Source of the DNA: Phyllosticta citribraziliensis
Taxonomy: Eukaryota
NCBI RefSeq assembly: GCF_038025025.1
Contig: NW_027117341.1
Span: 1,550,001 to 1,614,000 of the forward strand
Direction: 5' to 3'
DNA length: 64,000 nt
A program made the position numbers and the translations under genes. Every line of letters starts with the position of its first letter. Within the stretch, counting starts at the first letter, position 1. Positions 28,274-29,107 of the stretch are shown here, one piece after another. Under the pieces are notes generated by a model that saw only the letters and a list, made by a program, of their open reading frames with translations, did no database searches and was not told the DNA's origin.

Positions 28274-29107
28274 CTACGCCGCCACGGGCTCAGGCTCGGG
28301 CTTGGGCTCAGGGGCAGCCTCACGCTTCTCCGTCTCCTTGTAGTCGCCGTATGAAGCGTAGGGGTTGTAGGAGCCGTACTCATCGCGCTTCTGCTCAACC
28401 GGAGCAGCATCTGCAGCGCGCTTCTCCTTGTAGCTGCCGTAGGATGCGTACGGGTTGTACGAGCCGTACTCATCCCTCTTCTCCCCGGGGTAGTTGTCGT
28501 ACTTGCCGTAGGGGCTGTACGAGCCGTACTCGTCCCTCTTCCCGACGGGAGCCCTCTTCTCGGGATAGTTCTTGTATTCGCCGTAGCCTTCGTACGGGCT
28601 GTAAGACCCGTAGTCGCCATCCCTCTTCTCGACGGCGCGCTTCTTCTCAGGGTAGTCGCCGTAGCTGGCATAGGGATTGTAGCTCCCGTACTCGTCCCGC
28701 TTCTCAACGGCCCGCTTCTCCTCCGGATAGTCGCCATAACTTGCGTATGGGTTGTAGCTGCCGTACTCGTCCCTTTTTTGGATCGCGCGCTTCTTCTCCG
28801 GATAGTCGCCATAGCTGGCGTACGGGTTGTAGCTGCCATATTCATCTCGCTTCTCGACGGCCCGCTTCTTCTCAGGGTAGTCGCCGTAGCTGGCGTACGG
28901 GTTGTAGCTGCCGTATTCGTCCCTCTTCTCGATGGCACGTCGAACCTTCTCCGGATATTCTCCATAGCTTGCGTATGGGTTGTAGCTGCCGTACTCATCC
29001 CTCTTTTCGACAGCGGGGACGGGCTCGCGCGTGTCGAGCGGAGCGGCGACGACGCTGGTGATGGAGCCGAGAGCCATGAGGCCCACAACGACTTTGACAA
29101 GAGCCAT
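28274..29107 (-). CDS. Kex2-processed repeat protein; putative dikaritin-type RiPP precursor (277 aa, 9 Tyr-rich cores)
   Basis: Hydrophobic signal peptide MALVKVVVGLMALGSITSVVAA, then nine repeats of DEYGSYNPYASYGDYP-like cores, each bounded by KR/RR. Adjacent DUF3328 gene. Confidence 0.92.
   Translation of the reverse strand: MALVKVVVGLMALGSITSVVAAPLDTREPVPAVEKRDEYGSYNPYASYGEYPEKVRRAIEKRDEYGSYNPYASYGDYPEKKRAVEKRDEYGSYNPYASYGDYPEKKRAIQKRDEYGSYNPYASYGDYPEEKRAVEKRDEYGSYNPYASYGDYPEKKRAVEKRDGDYGSYSPYEGYGEYKNYPEKRAPVGKRDEYGSYSPYGKYDNYPGEKRDEYGSYNPYASYGSYKEKRAADAAPVEQKRDEYGSYNPYASYGDYKETEKREAAPEPKPEPEPVAA
28322..28999 (-). repeat. Coding tandem repeat, ~75-nt unit x9
   Basis: Core starts at 28999, 28921, 28846, 28771, 28696 and 28621 (78 then 75-nt spacing), followed by three more variable units. 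Confidence 0.95.

Follow-up and report, generated by a model that had tools for sequence, protein, structure and literature searches.

Results

A tyrosine-periodic precursor gene beside a single UstYa gene

The 64,000-nucleotide stretch of the Phyllosticta citribraziliensis genome analyzed here (contig NW_027117341.1, positions 1,550,001 to 1,614,000; hereafter the window) carries an intronless gene for a short tyrosine-rich repeat protein and, head-to-head with it at a distance of 1.56 kb, a four-exon gene for a UstYa/DUF3328 protein (Table 1). A Pfam scan of 216 six-frame open reading frames (ORFs; 107 + 109, at least 110 aa long between 13.7 and 44.5 kb and at least 120 aa elsewhere) found exactly this one UstYa/DUF3328 gene in the 64 kb, and no tyrosinase, cytochrome P450, peptide-acting S-adenosylmethionine (SAM) methyltransferase, second DUF3328 protein or radical-SAM family member; nor did it find a peptidase gene beside the pair. 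The PF11807 matches of the UstYa gene fall in three reading frames. All three UstYa introns are seen as GT..AG joints in RNA contigs, and the second of its two HxxHC motifs (H-V-S-H-C) straddles intron 3 by way of a split codon. The motif is described as conserved among UstY homologs (PMC12048977). A sequence search of the PDB with a UstYa ortholog returned nothing relevant at E<=1.

Translated, the precursor opens with a signal-like N-terminus; after a 14-residue pro-region whose last residues are KR come nine units, and the tail is rich in Pro and Glu. Each unit follows the formula D-E/G-D, then (Yxx)4-5Y, then 2 to 4 residues and KR or RR, with a 5- to 11-residue spacer carrying its own terminal KR in 6 of the 8 gaps between units. 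[quoted passage not shown] The core YGSYNPYASYGDY is present in five copies; YGSYSPYEGYGEYKNY, YGSYSPYGKYDNY and two further variants (ending in YGEY and YGSY) also occur, and unit 6 has one extra Yxx triplet. No Pfam family, including MF_alpha and MF_alpha_N, matches the ORF at E<=0.001, and a reading of the translation revealed no glycosylphosphatidylinositol (GPI)-like C-terminus or other wall-anchoring signal. AlphaFold2, run without an alignment, gave no fold (mean predicted local distance difference test score 45.6, predicted TM score 0.13), which is weak evidence, and the best ESM Atlas score of 0.84 lies below the recognition threshold, such matches being leads only. [quoted passage not shown] The precursor build is supported by the signal-like N-terminus and the KR/RR-bounded units, and the expected partner is the one adjoining gene, unaccompanied by a tyrosinase, methyltransferase or P450 that the scan could find.

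Two details of the gene model deserve comment. Translation from an ATG farther upstream, at 29200, would give a longer protein but is unlikely, since the closest relative, P0002 (57% identity over residues 1-52), has the signal peptide of the 29107 start at its own N-terminus, and since adapter-bearing RNA contigs end short of that ATG, at 29166 and 29177 (two contigs, and so a hint). The transcript probably also has an intron in its 3' untranslated region (UTR): contigs from the same organism break at 28257 and resume at letters matching about 28193-28206; in two relatives the letters at 28193-28258/28269 are replaced.

The repeat peptide is under selection

All 46 tyrosines of the precursor fall inside nine (Y-x-x)4-5-Y runs. 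The gap between successive tyrosines is 3 in 37 of 45 cases, the other 8 being jumps between units, and none of 2000 shuffles reached 37 such gaps (mean 5.2). A six-frame scan of the whole window for (Yxx)>=3Y runs likewise found nine, all of them in this gene. The claim from which this work started, that Tyr occupies every third residue of every core, is thereby confirmed; the region delimited for it, 28322-28999, is exactly the nine-unit array, and the three cores it quoted (YGSYNPYASYGDY, YGSYSPYEGYGEYKNY and YGSYSPYGKYDNY) are all present.

Because the nine units are duplicates they do not amount to nine independent observations, and the stronger support is taken from elsewhere. Tandem Repeats Finder describes the unit DNA as a 75-nt period with 80% matches. 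In pairwise comparisons of the codons of the 15-aa cores there are 188 synonymous against 93 nonsynonymous differences; the Ser5 codon is AGC in five units and TCN in four, and both codon families, AGY and TCN, are used at each of Ser5 and Ser11. Since the unit DNA has drifted, with an excess of synonymous change, while the 13-residue Tyr run has stayed identical in five units, selection acts on the peptide rather than on the DNA of the units. A simple 9-nt microsatellite is ruled out, the dipeptides between tyrosines (GS, NP, AS and GD) all being unlike one another. Within the units, the first half is near-invariant and the second half variable.

A family of Tyr-periodic secreted proteins

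An exhaustive phmmer search with the precursor gave 14 matches, of which 8 are short, secreted-looking fungal proteins with an excess of i+3 tyrosines; P0003-6, P0008 and P0015 were dropped as unrelated repeat proteins lacking Tyr periodicity. A profile search added 14 relatives, every one of them Tyr-periodic and secreted-looking. All 22 relatives thus show the i+3 excess, and in each of them 0 of 2000 shuffles reached the observed count. Loss of this spacing in homologs had been named beforehand as one outcome that would refute the idea of a polycyclic peptide, and all 22 keep it. A word-indexed homology search with the precursor found 0 relatives at E<=1e-3 among 2008 candidates.

Named relatives come from Phyllosticta, Zopfia, Exserohilum, Pyrenophora, Ascochyta, Rachicladosporium, Amylocarpus, Acephala, Aspergillus wentii and Purpureocillium, which we take to span Dothideomycetes, Leotiomycetes, Eurotiomycetes and Sordariomycetes, and all are annotated as hypothetical. 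The family consensus is YGxYxxYxxYGxY, many members being plain (YGx)n. Intervening residues, spacers and run length (7 to 22 residues, with up to 8 tyrosines in the longest runs) vary among relatives, and the register is constant. As in the window precursor, the N-terminus is hydrophobic; the relatives are Gly/Tyr-rich (YGN and YGK repeats), with poly-Pro or Ser/Thr linkers. The precursor belongs to an unnamed peptide family found in several classes of filamentous ascomycetes.

Variation within the family includes Cys inside many Tyr runs (Y-S-C-Y, Y-G-C-Y) of the Pleosporales-type members P0009, P0011 and P0014, which together with their long followers suggests a different or additional crosslink. 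Gene models are also uneven. The closest relative's deposited model (P0016, from Phyllosticta capitalensis) carries a spurious 137-residue N-terminal extension before the signal peptide (judged against P0002), and the window's own precursor protein is absent from a collection of 15 billion proteins. The family seems to have been overlooked in the searchable KEP catalogs, misannotation being one likely reason, and misannotation or nonannotation may explain its absence from secretome-based KEP surveys. Five family accessions and one UstYa neighbor are absent from the 7878-KEP Table S2 of PMC7329392, and the family motifs are absent from the searchable supplements of PMC7329392 and PMC6339444. 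Motif strings from the window and its relatives were found in no fungal paper, though subscription papers may still describe the family; no paper was found for the locus tags of UstYa orthologs, and nothing matching the family appeared in a general listing, with abstracts, of the UstYa/DUF3328 RiPP literature from 2022 onwards.

The pair is conserved across three classes

Metagenome contigs were scanned with a two-sequence alignment of the family as the query. One contig of 6.3 kb (L002) holds a multi-exon Tyr-periodic gene head-to-head with a UstYa gene (PF11807, E=2.9e-42; 56-62% identical to exons 3-4 of the window UstYa), with about 1.75 kb between start codons. Among the named relatives, adjacency was found in all three species for which accessions of both genes were at hand, each pair having consecutive accessions on an identical contig: KAG9232725/KAG9232726 in Amylocarpus, OJJ31222/OJJ31223 in Aspergillus wentii and KAF8865816/KAF8865817 in Acephala. 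Together with the window and L002, this makes 5 independent precursor-UstYa adjacencies in three classes. With only 2041 nt, a second metagenome locus (L001) could not show a neighbor and was left out of the count.

Both metagenome contigs have peculiarities of their own. In L002:5430-6290 (plus strand) the frame shifts once per repeat unit and the same short noncoding stretch recurs, so that each unit appears to hold its own intron; these introns appear to have been duplicated along with the peptide units. L001 joins a bacterial-looking ORF resembling a radical-SAM methylthiotransferase (1-1100) to a fungal Tyr-periodic gene (1200-2041), and is probably a chimeric assembly.

The enzyme is distributed more widely still. 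With the L002 UstYa as the query, 410 proteins reached E<=1e-20; the top 120 of the 410 are 62-96% identical to it, and 149 UstYa proteins compared with the window exons are 51-67% identical (median 59.5%). Very many genera harbor this subfamily, among them Botrytis, Sclerotinia, Aspergillus, Penicillium and Cercospora, along with Botryosphaeriaceae, lichen fungi and four genera of powdery mildews; most of the proteins are annotated as "Tat pathway signal sequence".

Both genes are transcribed

Run X1 is assigned to the same organism because its listed long pieces show 0 differences from the window; it is RNA, four genes having their GT..AG introns spliced out in its contigs. X1 contigs cover the precursor, UstYa and the flanking genes, with spliced joints in UstYa and in the neighbors. 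From a related organism (X3, about 90-95% alike) come one contig for the precursor and another, fully spliced, for UstYa; both genes also have contigs in a plant-metagenome RNA-seq run (X5), in which uncovered bins carry no meaning; and run X6 (organism C) has contigs over the region at 80-99% likeness. Summed X1 contig depth is 195,000-666,000 over the precursor, 11,800-49,000 over UstYa and 326-2,990 over flanking genes, which places the precursor two orders of magnitude and UstYa one order above the neighbors; contig depth is a poor measure, inflated by repeats and unable to rank genes properly, so these figures are a hint only. The X5 precursor contig omits 229 nt of the array (28599-28828, about three units), and hence the number of units seems to vary among close relatives.

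Cleavage signals mostly abut the Tyr runs

Across the family, 42 runs have an upstream KR or RR; 17 of these start within 3 residues of the site, and a further 9 are preceded by a spacer wholly removable as X-Ala/X-Pro dipeptides. Such dipeptide runs before a peptide are the Ste13 signature (PMC6339444). On the other side, 33 of the 50 runs with a downstream KR or RR end within 6 residues of it. Since the cleavage signals mostly abut whole Tyr runs, long mature peptides are plausible, and the sequences favor release of whole runs.

Neighboring genes in the window

Two nearby genes are of uncertain membership in the module. The first, convergent with the precursor, encodes a flavin adenine dinucleotide (FAD)-dependent oxidoreductase of the DAO type, whose intron (26436-26482) is skipped in RNA contigs; no counterpart was seen on L002, and a PDB sequence search found no relative. 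The second is a major facilitator superfamily (MFS) transporter fragment just under the Pfam cutoff, over which a spliced RNA contig extends (22176-25242). The wider flanks hold housekeeping genes (CDC45, NSUN2 and aconitase). A 417-aa ORF at 32225-33475 (minus strand) has no Pfam match at E<=0.001 and looks like a glutathione transferase by eye; a relative's RNA contig joins it to the UstYa 3' end, so the two convergent transcripts probably overlap. Another ORF, of 366 aa at 24371-25468 (minus strand), also lacks a Pfam match, looks BTB/POZ-like by eye and is spliced in same-organism RNA (CT..AC joint 24329>24385). The only S8 subtilase in the window (Peptidase_S8; 56549-57458, minus strand) lies 27 kb from the precursor.

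Table 1. Coordinates of the precursor-UstYa pair and of nearby genes in the window
Feature	Position	Strand	Basis or remark
Precursor coding sequence	28274-29107	minus	277 aa plus stop, intronless; ORF and translation
Signal-peptide-like N-terminus, about residues 1-22	29042-29107	minus	Read from sequence, hydrophobic
Nine-unit array, residues 37-262	28322-28999	minus	KR/RR-bounded Tyr-periodic units
Five Tyr runs at the lower coordinates	28340-28378, 28430-28468, 28490-28528, 28565-28612, 28652-28690	minus	
Four Tyr runs at the higher coordinates	28727-28765, 28802-28840, 28877-28915, 28955-28993	minus	
Probable 3' UTR intron of precursor transcript	28209-28258 (approximate ends)	minus	Inferred; GT..AG ends on minus strand
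Divergent intergenic region, precursor start to UstYa start	29108-30667	unstranded	1.56 kb
UstYa/DUF3328 exon 1, start codon and transmembrane-like stretch	30668-30914	plus	PF11807 on frame; joint 30914>30975, GT..AG
UstYa exon 2	30975-31106	plus	Pfam; joints 30914>30975 and 31106>31176
UstYa exon 3, first HxxHC (HQLHC)	31176-31406	plus	PF11807, E=2e-16
UstYa exon 4, stop codon 31743-31745	31498-31745	plus	PF11807, E=8.6e-19; joint 31406>31498
FAD-dependent oxidoreductase (PF01266, DAO-type), two exons	25703-27402	plus	Convergent with precursor; module membership uncertain
MFS transporter gene fragment	22654-23334	plus	Pfam MFS_1, 32.8 bits (cutoff 33.4); module membership uncertain

Discussion

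The reading that we consider probable is that the ORF encodes a precursor from which Kex2 releases secreted peptides about 17-21 residues long, that UstYa is their dedicated modifier, and that precursor and enzyme form an old two-gene module. Judged from the sequences, the pair would be a module shared by several classes of filamentous ascomycetes and no lineage-specific toxin cluster. That UstYa acts on the Tyr-periodic precursor is, in our estimation, quite likely. A product with two or more crosslinks per peptide, argued from analogy with known systems, is a more tentative proposition, and that such crosslinks would be Tyr-O-C(beta) ethers at i/i+3 must be called doubtful. Processing would follow the established Kex2/Kex1/Ste13 pathway, from which these steps are inferred. 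The signal peptide would direct the precursor into the secretory pathway, where the membrane-anchored UstYa may oxidatively join Tyr side chains; the likeliest link would run from phenol oxygen to beta-carbon, as in asperipin-2a, and if repeated along Y-x-x-Y-x-x-Y it would give a ladder of rings. Kex2 would then cut after KR or RR and a Kex1-type carboxypeptidase strip the basic residues, with a Ste13-type dipeptidase trimming the X-Ala/X-Pro spacers in the relatives, and the modified peptides would leave the cell.

Asperipin-2a of Aspergillus flavus (aprA, aprY, aprT and aprR) is the closest precedent for the window locus. Its cluster consists of a precursor, one UstYa homolog, a transporter and a reductase, with the single enzyme proposed for both ether rings, and its precursor is likewise secreted, of Kex2 type, with repeated Tyr-rich cores (PMC6514808). 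In both loci a single UstYa homolog would be the sole cyclase, no tyrosinase or methyltransferase accompanying it, with an oxidoreductase gene and an MFS gene nearby. The last Tyr of the asperipin core FYYTGY lies three residues past the middle one (PMC6514808). Judging by that core, one ring of the pair appears to bridge Y-x-x-Y. The rings are 14- and 17-membered. There are differences as well: asperipin-2a has a 6-residue core with two rings, whereas the window units place 5-6 tyrosines in an i+3 register over 13-16 residues; its reductase is of the isoflavone-reductase type, whereas the window has a DAO-type FAD enzyme of unproven membership; and the window UstYa, for its part, comes from a widely conserved subfamily. 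The original dikaritin definition of Ding et al. (tyrosinase, methyltransferase and several DUF3328 proteins) does not cover the window locus, which has the adjacent DUF3328/UstYa gene and its two HxxHC motifs; asperipin-2a likewise lacks the tyrosinase, the methyltransferase and the several DUF3328 genes (PMC12048977). By analogy, the window locus would work most like the minimal asperipin-2a cluster.

Other characterized systems resemble the locus in part. Ustiloxin and phomopsin (UstA/UstYa/UstYb/UstQ; PhomA) share the signal peptide, the KR-bounded repeats, DUF3328 with HxxHC and Tyr as the crosslinking residue, but their cores of 4-6 residues (YAIG, YVIP) hold a single Tyr, which is joined to Ile at i+2, and their pathways depend on a tyrosinase and at least two UstY proteins, extras not found in the window's 64 kb. 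Epichloecyclin (gigA/gigB/gigC/kexB) has a multicore, Kex-cleaved precursor beside one DUF3328 gene and a conserved Tyr, and exceptionally high expression of that precursor has been described (PMC10540207); unlike the window locus, it has one Tyr per core, and its cluster holds a SET methyltransferase and a dedicated kexin. KEPs of the alpha-factor type share the polyprotein layout and KR sites, along with the X-Ala/X-Pro runs that precede the peptide in the window precursor's relatives, but the window precursor lacks the MF_alpha domain and Trp motif and has a DUF3328 neighbor. Outside the fungi, one enzyme makes one ring per aromatic-X-X triplet, each at -2 Da, in the bacterial triceptides (PMC12912966). 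The aromatic residue at every third position is an analogy only: the triceptide enzyme is a bacterial radical-SAM protein that forms a C-C bond to the i+2 beta-carbon, whereas the window locus is eukaryotic and spliced. The plant burpitide selanine A (core VLFYPSY) is a Leu-Tyr-Tyr di-ether whose Tyr-O-C(beta) bonds, one of them a Tyr-Tyr link over Y-P-S-Y, are formed in a repeat precursor by a single copper cyclase (PMC11253845). It is a di-ether of the same overall build as asperipin-2a, with the second ring over Y-x-x-Y, but is made by a BURP-domain enzyme in plants and has two rings only. What sets the window locus apart from all characterized cases is the periodic multi-Tyr substrate, the Ste13-type spacers of its relatives, the breadth and conservation of its UstYa and a housekeeping-like setting.

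Several points weigh against the two-gene module as we describe it. Adjacency and transcription are circumstantial as a link between enzyme and peptide; adjacency from consecutive accessions rests on a GenBank numbering convention, and the pairing count covers the three named species with accessions of both genes, the 7 others having yielded none for UstYa. Nor need the modification be a ring, since hydroxylation, chlorination and transacylation are also carried out by DUF3328 proteins (PMC12048977). Boundaries are loose for 16 of the 42 runs on the N-side and 17 of the 50 on the C-side, and Pleosporales relatives have followers of 12-17 residues ahead of the next KR. Among characterized dikaritins the final product is much smaller than the KR-bounded unit it comes from, the 13/14-mers of UstA maturing to a 4-residue core and the 27-mers of GigA to 9-mers (PMC10540207), so trimming to a small core may occur here as well. 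The preliminary description had called the cores much longer than those of dikaritins; it had taken KR-bounded units for final cores, a step that UstA and GigA contradict. Finally, conservation at 51-67% in 149 UstYa proteins, powdery mildews included, is unusual for a natural-product enzyme, and the subfamily may have a structural or housekeeping role; relative P0173, with Ser/Thr-rich linkers and a Cys-rich domain, resembles a wall glycoprotein.

These last observations lead to the alternative in which the peptides, or the uncut protein, are Tyr-crosslinked between molecules, by UstYa or by wall oxidases, into the wall, spore surface or matrix. The structural option of the preliminary description is strengthened somewhat by how very widely its UstYa partner is conserved, in many lineages and in obligate biotrophs too. 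The setting among CDC45, NSUN2 and aconitase, the very high RNA contig depth over the precursor (a hint only) and the Gly/Tyr-rich composition of the relatives, with poly-Pro or Ser/Thr linkers and in one case a Cys-rich domain, all point the same way, as does Rep1 of Ustilago maydis, a repeat protein that Kex2 processes into peptides retained on the hyphae (PMC6339444). We nonetheless regard this as improbable: no wall-anchoring signal was seen in the precursor, whose short, acidic units are cut out precisely at paired KR sites, and DUF3328 as an intermolecular crosslinker was not found in the available parts of the DUF3328/dikaritin literature (including PMC7329392, PMC6514808, PMC10540207 and PMC12048977). 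A folded Tyr ladder or polyproline-type structural domain was set aside, there being no fold support and the units being precisely excised. Mimicry of plant sulfated DY-peptides was also set aside, the family occurring in non-plant fungi such as Aspergillus wentii as well.

To two further explanations we give very little credence. In one, the locus encodes an ordinary KEP whose linear Tyr-rich peptides act as signals or hormone-like molecules, and UstYa works on something else. The Ste13-type spacers of the relatives would fit, being typical of pheromone-like KEPs and absent from precursors of the ustiloxin, phomopsin and epichloecyclin type (PMC6339444), as would the 78% of cataloged KEPs that have no nearby DUF3328 gene (PMC7329392) and an ESM Atlas look-alike from the alpha-factor precursor family, whose score of 0.78 is under the 0.9 lead threshold. 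Set against these are the five independent lineages, in three classes, in which precursor and UstYa adjoin, and the lack of an MF_alpha Pfam match; moreover, pheromone-type KEPs almost all lack a DUF3328 neighbor, and Tyr occurs in 65.6% of DUF3328-linked KEP repeats versus 38.2% (PMC7329392). In the other, each unit would yield a classical small dikaritin, a short piece such as the invariant YGSY-N/S-PY half being cyclized once and the remainder trimmed. The near-invariant first half and variable second half of the window units suit such a scheme, and UstA and GigA are trimmed in this manner, GigA with an unexplained follower cleavage (PMC10540207). The i+3 register, on the other hand, holds from one end of a run to the other, both in unit 6 with its extra triplet and in the runs of up to 8 Tyr among relatives; cleavage signals mostly abut the run ends, and the Pfam scan found no extra peptidase gene beside the pair.

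UstYa/DUF3328 enzymes are known from a few patchy mycotoxin pathways, whose products are small rings with 4-9 residues. The present locus differs in its longer periodic Tyr substrate, in a pair found in at least three mold classes and in a UstYa subfamily that reaches even the genome-reduced powdery mildews. The boldest form of the idea, rather unlikely as a whole, is a near-universal ancient module of filamentous ascomycetes that pairs a highly conserved UstYa with a quickly evolving secreted polyprotein, constant in nothing but its Tyr at every third residue. UstYa would zip each released peptide into a ladder of consecutive Tyr-Tyr (i, i+3) rings, and the products would form a new class of long, polycyclic fungal ribosomal peptides that serve core physiology, at the surface or wall, in adhesion or in metal handling, and are not toxins. 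If the enzyme does modify the peptides, even the plainer two-gene module would offer a system small enough for heterologous tests of repeated UstYa action on one substrate, and would explain a conserved "hypothetical" gene pair, often labeled "Tat pathway signal sequence", in plant pathogens and industrial fungi. It would also give fungal ribosomal peptides a wider chemistry and a wider biological role.

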